A stretch of DNA of 64,000 nt from a bacterium (GCA_018675685.1 JABGXP010000014.1:81288-145287), one strand, 5' to 3'; positions 27,951 to 35,591 are shown, numbered from the stretch's first letter. Notes: generated from the letters alone by a model not told the origin. Made by a program: numbers and translations.

Positions 27951-30650
27951 CTAAAGTGAGATCCTTAGAATATCACCATTTTTAGTGCTAATAAATGCTC
28001 GATCCTGTTTTTCATTGACCCAGAAGTGTTCAGCATCTATGAATTTTTCACTGAATTTTTTCACTGTCTCCGATTGATTGCTCTTTAAAATCTTCATAAG
28101 AACCCCGTTTTTTGAGTCCAAAGAATATATATTACTTGGTTGAGACCTAGTTTCGATATCGACAATTCTTGTCTCTTCATAATCATCATTTTTTGCAGAG
28201 AAAGAAGTTTTTAATTTTCCTTCAAAGTATTGTTGAATTTCTCCGTTTTCAGATGCCACCAAAAGTGAATCATCAACCGCTAAGTCAATTGCTGCTGAAA
28301 AGAATTGTTGGTTCGGTATCCTGATTTTATAATTATGAAAACCTCCTGGTTTGCGAGGAAATTGATAGATATTCTTTGAATTATTATCAAGAATATAAAG
28401 ATATTGGAGATAAACCCCAGCTCCTCCAATGGCAAGATTGTTAGGGAGTTTAATATCAACATCTGTAAAGCGATTTGTTACGGGGCTATAAGAAAAAACA
28501 CGCTTTTCTGAAATAAGGAAGACCAGTCTAAGGGTCGGCATAGATACAAGTGTTTTGGTTTCTTTCATATCATTCTTAAGAGGGACTTCTTTCAAATTAT
28601 TATTGGTGATGTCTAATCGGAAGAATTTTCCTGAAGCTGTGAGGATGAATAATTCGTCCTTATCTCCAGTTAAAGCTTTAATCTCCTCATTAACAGCTGC
28701 TATTGTTGTTGTTTCTGTCTCACTTTCGGAACCTCCTCTTTTTTGATCATTTATTATCTCGGTAGTTGAGGTTTCATTGAAAGCTTTATTTCCAATTAAT
28801 TTAGACAAAAATGAGAATAAGAAAATCAACGCCAAGAGAGAAATCGTGCCTATAAGAATTATTTTTTTGTATTTTCTTGTAAGCAAAACAAACTTTCTCT
28901 TGAGTCTCCCCAAATCTTTTTGTTTTGAGATTGCTATAACAGAGGTAATTGAACTCGTCATGGCATCTCGAAAAGAAGTTTTTATTTGTGTATCAGTTGG
29001 TTTTGTACTTTCGCTGGCAATGTTATTTCCCTTCCCGATTCTCTTCTCTCCAGAGACAAGAGAATTAATCTTAGCATGCATAGCTGTGTAGAGCTCCTTG
29101 ATTTTTTCTGTCAATTTAAGGAATATAGACTTTAGCTCATTCAGAATCCTTTGAAAATCAATTAAATCAAGTTTCTCTTTCACTTTTTTTAAATAGACGC
29201 CAATGGTTCTTCGAACACTCTTGGCTTGTTTTTCTTTAAATGTAGACTCTTCTTTTTTTCGTATCTCTCCATTTTTTACACGCATAAACTCTCTTTCTTT
29301 ACGAATCGTTTCTTTTTCTGCCTCCATTTTTTCTTGCTCCTCTAGTTCTTTCGATGGTTCAATGGGGTAGGATATGCTGTTATTGAAAGAGAGGTCTTTT
29401 ATGTTGTCATCTGATTTCCCAAGCTTAATTTTCGAAATTAAAGGGATTGAACTTGCTGAAATATTGTTATTTTTTTTCAAATCCTCAAGAGTTTTTTTGG
29501 CTTTATTTAAAATAGAATTAAAGCTCTTCTCATTGGTGTCGTCAATTTCCTTCATTTCAAGAACTTCTTTATTCCCATCAGCTTCTTTAATAAAAAGTTC
29601 CGGTTGCTCTTCAAACGGAGAAATAGGAGATGATCCCACAGTTTTGTTTTTTTGTTCCGTAGGCGCAGTTGGTTTGTTCGGAATATTCACTGCCCCTTTC
29701 TTTGCCTTTTTAGACAATTCTATTTCTCCGTCTCTTGTCTTTTTTGGTATTAATGAGGAGATTGGGGCCTCTGTCGTGATACTAACTTCTTTGTCTTTGG
29801 TATTTTTAGTCTCCTGTTCTATGTTTTTTAGTGAGCGGCATCTTTTGCCTAGAGAGGTCTTTGGAGTGAACGCTTCACTTTCTCCAAAAAAATTAAGCTT
29901 TGCGAGATCTTTTTCTTTTGGAGCCGAAGTCACGCTTTTCTCTTTGATGTTAGTGATAACAACCCCCACATCCTCTCCCTCTAAGTCCAAAGTTGATTTG
30001 AGAATATTATCAAATTCACTGGAAGTAAAGGTTTTTGTGTGGCGAGTGATTTCCTCCCAAGAAAGGGAGTCAAAAAGTTTCTTTGTTGAAAAAATAAGTT
30101 TATCTCCAATTGAGAGTTCACCATAAGAAATATCAGAAAATGTTTTCACAGGGTGCACGTTTTTTTCCTCATTTAACCCCTTTGATATTTCAGCAATTTT
30201 TTTATTCTTGGAGAGAAAAATTTGTCCATTCCCAAGCTTAGTAAAATGGAGTTCATTTCCGCTGATAACTCCAATAACAGCATCTAAATTATTGATCCAG
30301 TTTGTTATTTCATGTTGAGCAAGATCCTCTAATGCCAGGTTGATCTTATTAAGGGCACTTCCAAAACTTTCCTCTGTTCCCCTGTTTGGTTTTAAGAAGA
30401 ATTCTCGCTTAATCACCTGGGAAAGAAGATTCGGAAGATAGGCGGATCCTTCTGAGTTGTCATTACTTCTGATTATACCAAAAAGGTCTCCCAATTTACG
30501 TTGGGCTGGATTCTCTCCCTCAAAATGAAAAGTGTTTGAAAATGGTTGCAAAGCTTTATCTTTACAGACCGCCACCAAGAAGGAATCTAATTCAATTTCA
30601 ATTTTAGATTTTTTTTCTTTAATATTGTTGTGCATAGCAAAATATTTCAA
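27951..30650 (-). CDS. large bitopic membrane protein (N-terminal cytoplasmic domain, coiled coil, central TM, C-terminal extracytoplasmic beta-rich domain), hypothetical
   Basis: An 899-aa ORF with a single central TM (IILIGTISLLALIFLFSFL). The N-terminal roughly 230 aa are globular, followed by a K/E-rich coiled coil. No confident family call. Confidence 0.4.
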   Translation of the reverse strand: MKYFAMHNNIKEKKSKIEIELDSFLVAVCKDKALQPFSNTFHFEGENPAQRKLGDLFGIIRSNDNSEGSAYLPNLLSQVIKREFFLKPNRGTEESFGSALNKINLALEDLAQHEITNWINNLDAVIGVISGNELHFTKLGNGQIFLSKNKKIAEISKGLNEEKNVHPVKTFSDISYGELSIGDKLIFSTKKLFDSLSWEEITRHTKTFTSSEFDNILKSTLDLEGEDVGVVITNIKEKSVTSAPKEKDLAKLNFFGESEAFTPKTSLGKRCRSLKNIEQETKNTKDKEVSITTEAPISSLIPKKTRDGEIELSKKAKKGAVNIPNKPTAPTEQKNKTVGSSPISPFEEQPELFIKEADGNKEVLEMKEIDDTNEKSFNSILNKAKKTLEDLKKNNNISASSIPLISKIKLGKSDDNIKDLSFNNSISYPIEPSKELEEQEKMEAEKETIRKEREFMRVKNGEIRKKEESTFKEKQAKSVRRTIGVYLKKVKEKLDLIDFQRILNELKSIFLKLTEKIKELYTAMHAKINSLVSGEKRIGKGNNIASESTKPTDTQIKTSFRDAMTSSITSVIAISKQKDLGRLKRKFVLLTRKYKKIILIGTISLLALIFLFSFLSKLIGNKAFNETSTTEIINDQKRGGSESETETTTIAAVNEEIKALTGDKDELFILTASGKFFRLDITNNNLKEVPLKNDMKETKTLVSMPTLRLVFLISEKRVFSYSPVTNRFTDVDIKLPNNLAIGGAGVYLQYLYILDNNSKNIYQFPRKPGGFHNYKIRIPNQQFFSAAIDLAVDDSLLVASENGEIQQYFEGKLKTSFSAKNDDYEETRIVDIETRSQPSNIYSLDSKNGVLMKILKSNQSETVKKFSEKFIDAEHFWVNEKQDRAFISTKNGDILRISL

Positions 30651-31105: not shown

Positions 31106-31134
31106 TTGACAAATATTTGGAGCTGTCATACAAT
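31106..31134 (+). promoter_or_regulatory. consensus sigma70 promoter of the hrcA-grpE-dnaK operon (TTGACA-17-TACAAT)
   Basis: TTGACA at 31106-31111, a 17-nt spacer and TACAAT at 31129-31134, immediately upstream of CIRCE. Confidence 0.65.
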
Positions 31135-31138
31135 GATA

Positions 31139-31165
31139 TTAGCAGTCGATGGGGTAGAGTGCTAA
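31139..31165 (+). promoter_or_regulatory. CIRCE operator (HrcA binding site)
   Basis: TTAGCAGTC-N9-GAGTGCTAA versus the consensus TTAGCACTC-N9-GAGTGCTAA, with one mismatch. It sits 23 nt upstream of the hrcA ATG. Confidence 0.8.
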
Positions 31166-31187: not shown

Positions 31188-31958
31188 ATGCTTTCAGACA
31201 GACAAGGAAAAATTCTAGCGTTAATCGTTCAAGAGTACACAAGATCGGCAGTCCCAGTCAGCAGCTCTTCTATTATGAAGGCTTTTAGAGAAAATATTTC
31301 TTCAGCAACAATTCGAAATGAAATGTTCGAACTTGAGAGAATAGGGTTTCTATTGAAACCACATGTTTCAGCAGGTAGAACACCATCAGACGCTGGATAT
31401 CGATACTTTATTGACAATCTTTTGAAAAATCGCAAACTCACACAAGATGATCAAAAGACGTTGCAAGTCGAGATGCTAAAGTTGAAAGCGCAAAATACGA
31501 GACTTTCAAGAACTCTTGCAAAAACACTCTCAACAACATCAAGATGCATGGCTTTGTCAGGAATGATTGAAAAAAAGGACTATTATGATTTTGGAATGCA
31601 CACATTGATGGATGATCCAGAATTCAACGAACTCGATGAAGTTTCGCGAATTGCTGCCTCACTTGACGTGATTGATGAGAAAATGGAGAAACTTCTAGAC
31701 CACCTAGAAGACGGAGAAATAAGAATATTCATCGGAGAAGAGAATCCAATTGAAGAGATTCGTAAATGTTCCATGATTATTTCACCATATCGACTGGAAA
31801 ACGGTGAACGAGGAGTCTTGGCGATTATTGGCCCTAAAAGGATGGAATATGGAAAGAACAAGAATTTAATTGATTTTGTAAGTGGATTCTTCAGTAATAA
31901 AAGCACAAAAGCTTTCTTCATAACAGCGACAACAGCGAATTTAGTTAACTTAATTTAG
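31188..31958 (+). CDS. hrcA: heat-inducible transcription repressor HrcA (short form)
   Basis: N-terminal winged-helix LSDRQGKILALIVQEYTRSAVPVSSSSI ... RNEMFELERIGFL.KPHVSAGRTPSDAGYRYF. Located downstream of CIRCE. Confidence 0.85.
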   Translation: MLSDRQGKILALIVQEYTRSAVPVSSSSIMKAFRENISSATIRNEMFELERIGFLLKPHVSAGRTPSDAGYRYFIDNLLKNRKLTQDDQKTLQVEMLKLKAQNTRLSRTLAKTLSTTSRCMALSGMIEKKDYYDFGMHTLMDDPEFNELDEVSRIAASLDVIDEKMEKLLDHLEDGEIRIFIGEENPIEEIRKCSMIISPYRLENGERGVLAIIGPKRMEYGKNKNLIDFVSGFFSNKSTKAFFITATTANLVNLI

Positions 31959-32023: not shown

Positions 32024-32956
32024 ATGATGAACTTAGGGAGAAAAATTAAAAATAAGCAACAAACCGAAGATAAGATGAAAAAAGATAATTTTGATTTTGA
32101 AAACAGTAGTATACGACCGATGGCAATTACAGTGAAGATTGTAGTTTTAAACTCCGATCAGAAAGTTCTTCTCTTAAAAAGGAGCAAAAAGTCTTTGAAT
32201 CCGAAGAAATGGGACTTGCCGGGTGGGCATATCGACGAAGGAGAGTCTATAGAAGAAACAATCAAGAGAGAGGTCTTGGAAGAAACAGGGCTTTCTGTAG
32301 AGATTGGGCCAATCATCAACGTAGTTGAGTTTGCCAAGGATCACAAGGCATTTAAAGAGGAAAAAAGAGGTTTGCGATATATTGCACTAACAACTGATAC
32401 GGAAGTTGTACTAAACGAGGACGAGCATTCAGAATTCAAATGGCTTTCCTTTGATGAAGCAATTGCTAGCTTGGAAGACAAGGGGTTTGAAGGGGAGAAA
32501 AAACAAACCATCAAAGAAGCGAAAAATCGAATGGAACTCGAAAAATCATTAAATGGTTGGCACAGAACACTAGCCGAGTTTGATAATTTTAAAAAGAGAA
32601 CTGAAAAATCAAATGATGAATTCCGAAAATTTTGCCTCGAAAACTTTATCATGGAACTTTTACCAGTAATTGACAACTTTGAAATGGCAACGCAGCATAT
32701 TCCGACAGAACAACAGGAAGAGGGATGGGTTGTGGGCGTGATGCATATTAAAAATCAACTACTTGGAGTTTTGGAGGCTAATGGAGTGACAGAAGTTCCC
32801 ACCGCAAAAGGAGATGATGTAAATGAATCGATCCATGAGATACTGAAAGCTTCAGAAAAAAAAGATGGTGAAGGCGGAAAGGTTAAGAAGGTTTTGAAGA
32901 AGGGGTATCAAATCGAAAAGCGGATAATTCGACCAGCGACCATTGAAGTAGAATGA
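32024..32956 (+). CDS. grpE: NUDIX hydrolase - GrpE fusion protein (nucleotide exchange factor with an N-terminal Nudix domain)
   Basis: Canonical Nudix box GHIDEGESIEETIKREVLEETGL (Gx5Ex7REUxEExGU) at residues about 66-88. GrpE core from about residue 170: AEFDNFKKRTEKSNDEFRKFCLENFIMELLPVIDNFEMA ... KGYQIEKRIIRPATIEV. It is a single uninterrupted ORF. Confidence 0.8.
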   Translation: MMNLGRKIKNKQQTEDKMKKDNFDFENSSIRPMAITVKIVVLNSDQKVLLLKRSKKSLNPKKWDLPGGHIDEGESIEETIKREVLEETGLSVEIGPIINVVEFAKDHKAFKEEKRGLRYIALTTDTEVVLNEDEHSEFKWLSFDEAIASLEDKGFEGEKKQTIKEAKNRMELEKSLNGWHRTLAEFDNFKKRTEKSNDEFRKFCLENFIMELLPVIDNFEMATQHIPTEQQEEGWVVGVMHIKNQLLGVLEANGVTEVPTAKGDDVNESIHEILKASEKKDGEGGKVKKVLKKGYQIEKRIIRPATIEVE

Positions 32957-33105
32957 TAAGTTGCATTGAAATGAAAGACGAATAAATAGTTTGAGTGCAT
33001 ATCTTGGTGATATTTCTTGTCGCCAAGGATATGGATTTAAAATAAGGGAGGGACAACCCCTGTAAAAATAGATCCAATTTTAATAAGTTAAGTGAAAATA
33101 AAGTT

Positions 33106-35049
33106 ATGGGAAAAATCCTAGGAATCGATTTAGGAACAACCAACTCTGCGATGGCTATCGTGGAAGGCGGAACTCCTGAGATCGTAGAAAACAAAGAAGG
33201 GAACAGAACAACTCCTTCAGTAGTCGCGATTAATAAAGGTGGTGAAAGATTAGTAGGTCTTTTAGCAAAAAGGCAAGCTGTGACAAATCATGAGAATACA
33301 ATCTATTCAGCAAAACGTTTGATTGGGCGAAAGTTTTCAGATGCAGAGGTAAAGGAAACTGCTACAAAACTTCCTTTTAAAATTACTTCAGGTAAAAATG
33401 AAGCCGTTAATATCACAATGAACGGAAAAGCATACCGACCAGCTGAAATTTCAGCAATGGTTTTGCAGAAATTAAAAGCTGATGCAGAGGAAAAACTCGG
33501 AGAAAAAATCGAAGAAGCTGTGATTACAGTTCCTGCATATTTTGACGATGCTCAAAGAAAAGCGACAAAAGATGCTGGAGAAATTGCTGGGCTCAAGGTG
33601 ATGCGAATCATCAATGAACCAACAGCTGCAGCACTTGCGTATGGTTTTAACAAGAAAAAAGACGAAAAAATTGCTGTCTATGATCTTGGAGGAGGAACTT
33701 TCGATATTTCAATTTTGGAAGTTGCTGAAGACACTGTGGAAGTTAAAGCTACAAATGGTGATACTTATCTTGGTGGAGATGATTTTGATGAAAAAATCAT
33801 AACTTGGATTCTAGATGAATTCAAGAAAGCAGAAGGAATTGATCTTTCAAAAGATCCACTTGCTCTTCAGAGAATCAAAGAATCTGCTGAGAAAGCGAAA
33901 ATTGAACTTTCAACAGCACAAGAAAGTGAAATCAACCAACCATTTATCACTTCAGGTGATGATGGACCAAAACATCTTGTGATGAAAATTTCAAGAGCTA
34001 AATTGGAAGAACTAGTAGGAGATTTAGTAGACAAAACACTTGAACCAGTGAAAAAGGCATTGGCTGACGCAAAATTCAAAGCAGCTGATATCAATGAAAT
34101 TGTGATGGTTGGAGGAATGACAAGAATGCCATTGGTTTTGAAGAGAGTAGAAGAATTCTTTGGAAAGAAACCATCGACCAGTGTTAATCCAGATGAAGTT
34201 GTGGCAATGGGTGCTGCAATTCAGGGTGGAGTTCTTCAAGGCGATGTCAAAGATGTATTGTTACTTGATGTGACACCACTTACTCTTGGAATTGAAACAA
34301 TGGGTGGAGTTTTAACACCACTTATTGAACGAAATACTACAATTCCAACAACAAAGTCACAAATATTTTCAACTGCAGCTGATAATCAACCTGGTGTTGA
34401 AATTCATGTTTTGCAGGGTGAACGAAAAATGGCTGCAGACAGCAAACCACTTGGAAGATTTATGTTGGATGGAATTCCACCAGCACCAAGAGGAGTGCCA
34501 CAAGTTGAAGTTTCTTTCGACATCGATGCAAATGGAATCTTGAATGTAAAAGCAATTGACAAAGCAACAAATAAAGAGCAATCAATTCGTATTGAAGCTT
34601 CAAGCGGAATGTCTGAGGAAGAGATTGAGAAAATGAAAAAGGATGCTGAACTGCATGCTGAAGAAGACAAAAAGAAAGCTGAGGAAATTGAAATAAAGAA
34701 CACAGCTGATGCAATCGTTCATTCGACCGAAAAAACTTTTAAAGAGGTTGGAGACAAGATTTCTGATGACAAGAAAAAACCAGTTGAAGAAAAGCTTGAA
34801 GCCTTGAAAAAAATAAAAGATGGTGATGACTTTGAGGCAATCAAAAAAGCTTCTGAAGAGCTTTCAACTGAGGCTCAGAAAATTGGCGAAGAGATGTATA
34901 AAGCAGCTCAAGAAGCAGAAGCAGCTAAAGCAGCACCTGAAGGAGAAGAGAAAAAAGAAGAGGGTGATGTAAAAGAGGCTGAAGTTGAAGAAAAAGAAGA
35001 AGAAAAGAAGGAAGAGAAGAAAGACGAAAAAGAAGAAGAAAAGAAATAG
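33106..35049 (+). CDS. dnaK: molecular chaperone DnaK (Hsp70)
   Basis: [27 protein letters not shown] and [11 protein letters not shown]. Substrate-binding domain and an acidic EEKKEE C-terminal tail. Confidence 0.95.
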
Positions 35050-35285: not shown

Positions 35286-35591
35286 ATGAACCAAAACCAA
35301 CAACCCCAAGCGGGTCAACAACAAATCCAGATCAAAGCCAATGATGAGGATTTGAAGGGGAAGTATTCAAACACAGTCCAGATGATGCACACTAAAGAGG
35401 AATTTGTTTTAGATTTTTTGAATATCTTCCCTCCAACAGGCACACTCAATTCACGTGTGATTGTTTCTCCTTCACATTTCAAAAGAATGACTGCTGCAAT
35501 GAGCGACAATTTGAAGAAATATGAAGAGAAGTTCGGAAAGATCAAGGACGTGAAAGGGGAGGAAAGTGGAAAAATGGGATTTGTGGGATAG
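35286..35591 (+). CDS. hypothetical small protein (Q/N-rich N-terminus)
   Basis: A 101-aa ORF. It possibly resembles DUF3467-type proteins (EFVLDF motif) often found near dnaK, but this is weak. Confidence 0.35.
   Translation: MNQNQQPQAGQQQIQIKANDEDLKGKYSNTVQMMHTKEEFVLDFLNIFPPTGTLNSRVIVSPSHFKRMTAAMSDNLKKYEEKFGKIKDVKGEESGKMGFVG

Follow-up and report, generated by a model that had tools for sequence, protein, structure and literature searches.

A Nudix hydrolase domain joined to the nucleotide exchange factor GrpE in a bacterial heat-shock operon

Why should a protein that occupies the place of the co-chaperone GrpE, between hrcA and dnaK, begin with a nucleotide-hydrolysing domain? This question is raised by a bacterial stretch of 64,000 nucleotides (GCA_018675685.1, JABGXP010000014.1:81288-145287), referred to here as the window. 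At 32024..32956 on the plus strand it contains an open reading frame (ORF) that encodes 310 amino acids, disordered tail included, and that runs from an ATG to a TGA-TAA stop; the start codon is ambiguous, with M1, M2 or M18 possible. An initial annotation had described a single 310-residue ORF with a Nudix box in its N-terminal half and a GrpE core in its C-terminal half, and that description holds: both Pfam domains and all of the quoted motifs (AEFDNFKKRTEKSNDEF, LLPVIDNFEMA and RIIRPATIEV) are present. We lean, with some reserve, towards the explanation that this is a true GrpE carrying a tethered, catalytically active MutT-like pyrophosphatase that is co-regulated through HrcA and its CIRCE operator and has a stress-related nucleotide as its substrate.

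Both domains are recognized by profile searches. The Pfam NUDIX family (PF00293) matches residues 35-153 with 89.4 bits against a cut-off of 21.1 (E 2.6e-25), and the GrpE family (PF01025) matches residues 158-309 with 125.3 bits against a cut-off of 25.8 (E 2.5e-36), covering profile positions 15-163 of 165. The GrpE part also finds solved GrpE structures in the PDB (4ANI, 5.6e-16; 1DKG, 7.2e-13; 3A6M, 1.2e-12), with an alignment that begins at residue 18 of the Thermus thermophilus protein and spans residues 57-192 of Escherichia coli GrpE. At least 20 lineage-specific NCBIfam GrpE models of the PRK type match from residues 105-176 to residues 305-309, with E values between 1e-27 and 1e-11. 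None of the NCBIfam GrpE equivalog cut-offs is reached, the best being NF010738 with 97.2 bits versus 137. Across an alignment of 91 fusions, P214, V215, D217, N218 and F219 of the GrpE signature (LLPVxDNF), along with G294, Y295 and R303, are invariant or nearly so.

An AlphaFold2 monomer model built from 91 sequences has a mean predicted local distance difference test score (pLDDT) of 88. It consists of a Nudix fold at residues 34-149, a four-residue connector, a helix at 154-224, a second helix at 234-252 and a beta domain at 255-309, and the helices and strands of the GrpE part are modelled with a pLDDT of about 90. Foldseek searches with this model return the Nudix structure 3grn (E 6.5e-11, TMt 0.76) and also the GrpE structure 9a81. 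On the plus strand, the protein opens with a lysine-rich disordered tail (residues 1-32, 32024..32119; pLDDT below 50 for residues 1-25), which varies between 0 and 37 residues among homologues. The Nudix hydrolase domain follows (residues 33-150, 32120..32473), as delimited by Pfam, by PDB sequence and profile matches, by the AlphaFold2 model and by Foldseek. Beyond a junction at residues 151-162 (32474..32509), alignment and model together place the long GrpE stalk helix from residue 154 to about 205 (32483..32638), the four-helix-bundle region with the LLPVIDNF signature at about residues 206-253 (32639..32782) and the C-terminal beta domain at residues 254-310 (32783..32953), the part that contacts the nucleotide-binding domain (NBD) of DnaK in solved complexes (PMC10803776). 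The tripartite GrpE architecture of long helix, four-helix bundle and beta domain is thus complete in the model.

The initial annotation had held that the Nudix domain replaces both the disordered N-terminus of GrpE and its long thermosensor helix. Only the first half of this claim survives: the disordered tail is displaced, while replacement of the helix is ruled out by the Pfam coverage, by the alignments with the T. thermophilus and E. coli proteins and by the continuous model helix at 154-224. In the model, a short remnant of the disordered tail precedes the Nudix domain and the base of the stalk follows it; where this lysine-rich tail persists ahead of the domain, it measures 5-37 residues. 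The junction carries the motif D-G-F-E-x-E-K, in which F155, E156, E158 and K159 are kept at 90% or more in the alignment of 91 fusions. Within the window's subgroup, mean pairwise identity is 0.245 for the tail, 0.505 for the Nudix domain and 0.46-0.53 for the GrpE segments, so that the Nudix domain is conserved as much as the GrpE parts; the junction, at 0.606 (60.6%), is the most conserved of all segments. It is also modelled with a pLDDT of 93-98, a sign that Nudix domain and stalk may be rigidly connected.

The Nudix box itself extends from G68 to L90 (GHIDEGESIEETIKREVLEETGL; 32225..32293, plus strand) and fits the consensus GX5EX7REUXEEXGU exactly, with E74, R82, E83, E86 and E87 as its metal-binding and catalytic residues. 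In the near clade of 97 sequences, E83 and E87 are present without exception (97/97 each), followed by R82 (96/97), E74 (95/97) and E86 (94/97). A box that decays among orthologues would have marked the domain as a degenerate relic, a caveat raised in the initial annotation; with its catalytic residues kept in 94-97 of the 97 sequences, the domain is not a relic in the window's clade. In the wider family of 167 fused proteins, all seven key box residues are canonical in 127, about 25 have conservative changes, mostly of the last glycine, and about 13 are clearly without catalytic residues. This degenerate minority probably keeps a dead Nudix domain. One such protein, P0255, is encoded between hrcA and dnaK (locus L088) and has a box-less N-terminal domain that models with Nudix topology and matches Nudix folds at E values of about 1e-5, although the input alignment included true Nudix fusions and may have biased the model towards that fold.

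It might be supposed that two separate genes were wrongly joined by assembly or annotation. In favour of this, two further assemblies of essentially the same strain (L082 and L083; ENA ERZ4200990 and ERZ27237590; 99.9% identical) are annotated with a 247-residue product (P0001) and a 56-residue product. That split, however, comes from a single G-to-T difference at window position 32765 (L082:846 and L083:846), which lies within the GrpE part, well away from the Nudix/GrpE junction. It changes GGA (Gly248) to TGA at codon 248 of the fusion and truncates GrpE ahead of the beta domain, at a coverage of about 3x; it may reflect variation in the population, a pseudogene or a read error common to both assemblies. 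An ORF scan of the window finds 0 internal stops and 0 frameshifts in 32024..32956. When the junction is followed into other assemblies, as had been advised from the outset, it is identical and in frame in L082 and L083, and neither these nor more than 160 homologues have a stop or frameshift there. Because the junction is intact and the same architecture recurs in more than 160 proteins, from assemblies held by NCBI, JGI, ENA and Logan, an artefact is rejected and its probability is practically negligible.

A second Nudix-GrpE gene, L081:977-1861, lies in an hrcA-fusion-hsp20 context and has one in-frame TAA within the stalk helix, at a position where the window protein and the alignment consensus have glutamate; if the codon was originally GAA, this would be another G-to-T change, like that at 32765. 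Oxidative damage and library artefacts typically produce changes of this sort. Two candidates for naturally split genes, P0097/L081 with its apparently separate Nudix and the 247-residue P0001, are accordingly fused genes with a single in-frame nonsense codon each (TAA and TGA, respectively), and a two-gene arrangement with a separate nudix gene beside grpE was found in none of the loci examined.

Homologues were sought in a collection of 5.8 billion proteins, and a profile search covered 1.84 billion representatives of clusters at 50% identity. The fusion recurs well beyond the window, whose source is an ultra-small bacterium of the Patescibacteria, in many uncultured relatives. About 96 clusters (at 90% identity) in the larger collection have the NUDIX plus GrpE architecture and are 41-100% identical to the window protein, and at least 160 database proteins share it. 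Among the best 150 matches to the 50%-identity cluster representatives, 73 are Nudix(-Nudix)-GrpE proteins. The named sources are all Patescibacteria, given as Patescibacteria, Moranbacteria (Moraniibacteriota) or Pacebacteria metagenome-assembled genomes (MAGs); in public annotation, these named fusions appear as 'nucleotide exchange factor GrpE' only.

The N-terminal region of these proteins is variable. Tandem Nudix-Nudix-GrpE forms of 445-453 residues occur (P0013, P0044, P0048, P0052, P0056 and P0148). Junction sequences differ between subgroups, and P0217, P0243 and P0244 have a CxxC linker between Nudix and GrpE, e.g. KHSLFGNKCKKCEDAKKE. Other GrpE proteins carry different N-terminal domains: P0277 has DUF3850 (E 2.9e-12), which we take to be an ASCH-like domain, and P0191 and P0260 have unassigned domains of 118-156 residues. 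In Moranbacteria RIFCSPHIGHO2_02_FULL_40_12b, a 326-residue GrpE (L013:3171-4148), located between hrcA and dnaK, begins with a different domain of about 150 residues that has a GS...DxD-like motif and weak matches to NTP_transf_2 and DUF2204 (E 0.004-0.009, below the Pfam cut-offs).

The genomic setting is that of the classical heat-shock operon. The initial annotation's CIRCE-type hrcA-grpE-dnaK operon is recovered on the plus strand, with hrcA upstream of the fusion (31188..31958; Pfam HrcA, E 5.5e-24) and dnaK, encoding Hsp70, downstream of it (33106..35049; HSP70, E 8.7e-256). Upstream of hrcA there is a sigma-70-like promoter, TTGACA-17-TACAAT (31106..31134), which matches 11 of 12 consensus positions and is a consensus match only. 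It ends 5 nucleotides ahead of a CIRCE operator, the HrcA binding-site type, at 31139..31165 (TTAGCAGTC-N9-GAGTGCTAA). This has 1 mismatch to the consensus used, TTAGCACTC-N9-GAGTGCTAA, and is the sole match in the 64 kb, where 0.02 would be expected by chance. With a CIRCE between the putative promoter and the first gene, and with hrcA itself present, the operon has the sequence features of an HrcA/CIRCE regulon.

The slot between hrcA and dnaK holds the fusion in 12 other loci, nine from representative genomes (L001-L009) and three from divergent subtypes (L084, L086 and L088). The same slot holds a plain GrpE of 180-220 residues in L010-L012, L015 and L019, whose DnaK proteins are 70-77% identical to that of the window. 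The fusion thus occupies the grpE position of its relatives and is the orthologue of grpE. No second GrpE gene and no related Nudix gene occurs in the window, and the unfused relatives examined have no free Nudix gene within about 6 kb of grpE.

In a DnaK tree of 609 columns and 18 taxa, plain-GrpE lineages are interleaved with fused relatives, and 5 changes between the fused and unfused states are counted in 190 of 200 resamples. A neighbor-joining tree of the GrpE domain gives 23 changes from an alignment too short for trust, and distances in the Nudix and GrpE domains correlate weakly (r = 0.30) and are saturated. A single origin is therefore not established: given these trees, the saturated distances and the subgroup-specific junction motifs, one origin followed by losses is not separable from several independent fusions. 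The Nudix module looks, from the sequences compared, like an accessory that has been lost repeatedly or gained more than once. Five MAGs labelled Fimivivens, Bdellovibrionales or Micavibrio (L003, L006, L009, L010 and L019) group with Moranbacteria on the DnaK tree. Their HrcA (43-51%) and DnaK (72-77%) proteins are as close to those of the window as are the proteins of Moranbacteria MAGs, and their taxonomic labels look unreliable.

The solved relatives of the Nudix domain are generic MutT-like proteins. The closest solved structure is 3GRN, a 'MutT related protein' from Methanosarcina mazei (2e-13 by sequence, 1.9e-24 by profile, 6.5e-11 by Foldseek), and more distant solved relatives include NudI, NUDT18, NUDT15, Ap4A hydrolases, MutT and AtNUDX1. 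A domain-only search for a free-standing orthologue returned distant stand-alone Nudix proteins only; the closest are 32-52% identical over local alignments scoring 65-70 bits or less, in contrast to the GrpE-fused homologues, which are 41-78% identical over their full length. P0204 and P0240, which have tandem Nudix domains but no GrpE part, were also considered and set aside as orthologues; both are encoded on short contigs, in genomic settings unrelated to this one.

If the explanation that we favour is correct, the fusion protein would still serve as the nucleotide-exchange factor of DnaK. Because GrpE is a parallel homodimer, two Nudix domains would then be neighbours at the stalk's foot. 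In the cryo-electron microscopy structure of the Mycobacterium tuberculosis DnaK-GrpE complex, the GrpE beta domain contacts lobes IB and IIB of the NBD, and in solved DnaK-GrpE complexes the far end of the stalk faces the substrate-binding domain (SBD), with the beta domain at the other end holding the nucleotide cleft (PMC10803776). By alignment, the helix region that contacts the SBD corresponds to about residues 176-198 of the window protein, in which the Nudix domain ends at residue 150 and the helix starts at 154. The Nudix domains are accordingly estimated to sit just below the SBD contact and 75-100 Å from the nucleotide cleft, a distance inferred from helix-length arithmetic and not from measured coordinates.

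A Nudix domain at the foot of the stalk and at such a distance is unlikely to receive ADP directly. This bears on a role suggested in the initial annotation, namely that exchange on DnaK is coupled to destruction of the nucleotide, with ADP or ADP-ribose (or, as considered here, ATP) hydrolysed by the Nudix domain at the nucleotide site of DnaK. The sole basis for that suggestion is that both domains handle adenine nucleotides, and among Nudix enzymes there are indeed some whose substrates are nucleoside di- and triphosphates. However, the stalk is retained and not replaced, and the Nudix domain is joined to it at residue 154, at the end opposite the cleft-opening beta domain and separated from it by a helix of ~70 residues. 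Destruction of ADP or ATP beside an ATP-driven chaperone would also bring no obvious benefit, and we consider the coupling very improbable. The part in nucleotide sensing or alarmone turnover that the initial annotation also suggested may still apply.

It may be instead that the Nudix module acts as a heat-shock-co-regulated hydrolase tethered to the chaperone, with no interception of ADP. The best guesses for its substrate would be dinucleoside polyphosphates, such as diadenosine tetraphosphate (Ap4A), or damaged or non-canonical nucleoside triphosphates (NTPs). Ap4A builds up under heat and oxidative stress, becomes cross-linked to the E. coli proteins DnaK, GroEL and ClpB, and is degraded by Nudix enzymes (PMC10148737); as a conjecture, it is an attractive candidate. 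The position of the domain could have a further consequence. In M. tuberculosis the disordered GrpE tail is needed for substrate release (PMC10803776), and the E. coli tail binds the substrate site of the SBD through its 17-IIM-19 motif (PMC12915176). The Nudix domain would sit where this tail normally reaches the DnaK substrate site, and the fusion probably alters tail-mediated, GrpE-assisted substrate release.

Several observations weigh against an active, stress-directed pyrophosphatase of this kind, the arithmetic origin of the 75-100 Å distance among them. The search for a substrate by NCBIfam, by PDB sequence and profile matches and by Foldseek gave generic MutT-like relatives only, and 3GRN, the nearest, is itself uncharacterised. 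NCBIfam Nudix equivalogs remain below their cut-offs (NudB NF006961, 47 versus 103 bits; PRK08999, 46.5 versus 245). Dunn et al. (1999) reportedly described markers located past the box, a proline at about +15 in ADP-ribose pyrophosphatases and a tyrosine at about +16-18 in Ap4A hydrolases. By these rules, neither a proline at about +15, nor a tyrosine at about +16-18, nor the SQPWPFPxS motif follows L90. Assignment to the MutT 8-oxo-dGTPase, NudB, Ap4A hydrolase or ADP-ribose/NADH pyrophosphatase subfamilies was thus attempted and rejected, with no equivalog or marker match. A different kind of difficulty is posed by the about 13 lineages that keep a Nudix-like domain but lack catalytic residues. 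Together with the still Nudix-like fold modelled for P0255, they suggest that the domain does something other than catalysis in at least some fused members. Finally, no alignment column of DnaK separates the 11 partners of fused GrpE from the 7 partners of plain GrpE, and co-adaptation of DnaK, for which there is therefore no sign, was rejected.

Those degenerate lineages, which retain the domain at the same locus, are the natural starting point for a reading in which the Nudix domain is mainly regulatory or structural in the DnaK cycle and does not work as an enzyme in its own right. Its possible roles are those of a nucleotide-binding sensor, of a bulky substitute for the tail that tunes substrate release from the SBD, or of a dimerisation module that reports unfolding of the thermosensitive stalk. 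Its insertion where the tail normally emerges beside the DnaK SBD would suit such roles, as would the predicted rigidity of the top-conserved junction, the persistence of Nudix-fold matches in the box-less P0255 and the presence of other N-terminal domains on GrpE of the same group (DUF3850 in P0277, the weakly nucleotidyltransferase-like domain of L013, and those of P0191 and P0260). However, roughly 90% of lineages retain the catalytic residues, even though the Nudix domains of the cluster representatives average only 28% identity; if there were no catalysis, such a pattern would be difficult to account for. The domain also seems to have disappeared on several occasions while DnaK shows no change that tells these lineages apart, and a mainly regulatory role seems to us unlikely. 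It is also conceivable that the fusion is nearly neutral, i.e. that two genes of stress response or housekeeping, unrelated to each other, were joined in a streamlined genome and share only transcription and translation, with no functional benefit from the tether. The interleaving of fused and plain GrpE among close relatives, the missing DnaK co-adaptation and the resemblance of the domain to generic free-standing MutT-like enzymes are all compatible with this. Set against it are the persistence of the fusion, its box conserved, in no fewer than 73 clusters (50% identity), the high conservation of the junction in the window's subgroup and the occurrence of tandem Nudix-Nudix-GrpE derivatives. 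No natural split was found, both apparent splits being in-frame nonsense codons, and in relatives with plain GrpE the neighbourhood of grpE, out to about 6 kb, contains no free Nudix gene. Near-neutrality is accordingly held to be distinctly unlikely.

A more speculative proposal, to which we give little credence, is that the foot of the GrpE stalk in these Patescibacteria is a docking site for nucleotide-processing modules, among them Nudix, tandem Nudix, a possible nucleotidyltransferase and the ASCH-like DUF3850, that act directly on the DnaK machine or on its bound clients. Substrate release might then be gated by the binding or hydrolysis of an alarmone such as Ap4A, in a manner made temperature-dependent by the thermosensitive coiled coil. 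Alternatively, such modules might free DnaK or its clients of a modification derived from a nucleotide, such as AMP or ADP-ribose. If either is true, the exchange factor would itself incorporate a new level of control over Hsp70.

Other features surround the operon. The 149-nucleotide spacer between the fusion and dnaK (32957-33105) folds considerably better than shuffled sequences (z = -3.2, with 0 of 200 shuffles as good) and contains a 10-bp hairpin, CTTGGTGATA...TGTCGCCAAG, without a T-run; it is possibly an mRNA processing or stability element inside the operon. A DUF3467 gene (35286-35591, plus strand; E 9.8e-24) is located directly 3' of dnaK. In the window dnaJ is not adjacent to dnaK, and L086 and L088 have dnaJ after dnaK. 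On the minus strand beside the operon, an 899-residue ORF (27951-30650) has no Pfam match; it has a middle rich in lysine and glutamate, one hydrophobic segment and a repeat-like C-terminal part. The G+C content of the window is 36.5%, and a search of all 64 kb with Rfam gave no family at gathering score, so that genes for tRNA, rRNA or riboswitches were not detected.

Few co-chaperones have been studied as thoroughly as GrpE. Only in recent work was its N-terminal tail found to bind the substrate site of DnaK and to drive the release of substrate (PMC12915176, PMC10803776). A widespread natural family that puts a folded, apparently active hydrolase at the position of this tail offers a natural test of what the region tolerates or can serve for. 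It may also connect Hsp70 physically with stress nucleotides such as Ap4A or damaged NTPs, as has been proposed since 1991, and it illustrates the merging of functions into single polypeptides in genome-reduced Patescibacteria. The annotation 'nucleotide exchange factor GrpE' hides a Nudix enzyme domain. Even if the link is one of co-expression only, the family calls for a correction of annotation and provides an example of repeated domain gain and loss. The initial annotation knew of no described GrpE with a Nudix module, and none was found in the full-text literature searched, where one paper names both domains in unrelated contexts. A 2025 review devoted to GrpE-like exchange factors is silent on Nudix and on fusions of any kind, and no precedent for pairing Nudix with a chaperone co-factor was found in the literature searched. 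A GrpE with an enzymatic accessory domain thus appears to be new, although such proteins, annotated as GrpE only, are already in public databases.

Compared with known systems, the C-terminal 155 residues of the fusion have the architecture of canonical GrpE, as known from E. coli (1DKG), Geobacillus kaustophilus (4ANI), T. thermophilus (3A6M) and M. tuberculosis (8GB3). Both have the LLPVxDNF signature, the GY motif, a C-terminal arginine and the operon slot flanked by hrcA and dnaK; the arginine of the fusion presumably aligns with R183 of E. coli GrpE (own numbering). They differ at the N-terminus, where canonical GrpE has a disordered tail of 30-45 residues placed directly on the stalk, whereas the fusion has a shorter tail and a folded Nudix domain of 120 residues. 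The conserved hydrophobic motif reported for the tail of E. coli GrpE, 17-IIM-19 (PMC12915176), is without a conserved equivalent in the fusions. With free-standing MutT-like Nudix proteins, of which 3GRN is the closest, the fusion shares the Nudix fold, the complete box and, in the case of 3GRN, an E-H...W motif near the C-terminus; unlike them, it is tied covalently to a coiled-coil stalk by a four-residue connector. Bifunctional Nudix fusions such as NadM-Nudix (NMN adenylyltransferase/ADP-ribose pyrophosphatase, 2QJO/2QJT) and the Nudix-domain regulators NrtR and AraR provide precedents both for a Nudix domain on a functional partner and for a catalytically dead Nudix domain reused as a ligand sensor. 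All three are among the structural or profile matches of the Nudix domain described here. Their partners are a metabolic enzyme or a DNA-binding domain, whereas in the fusion the partner is a chaperone co-factor.

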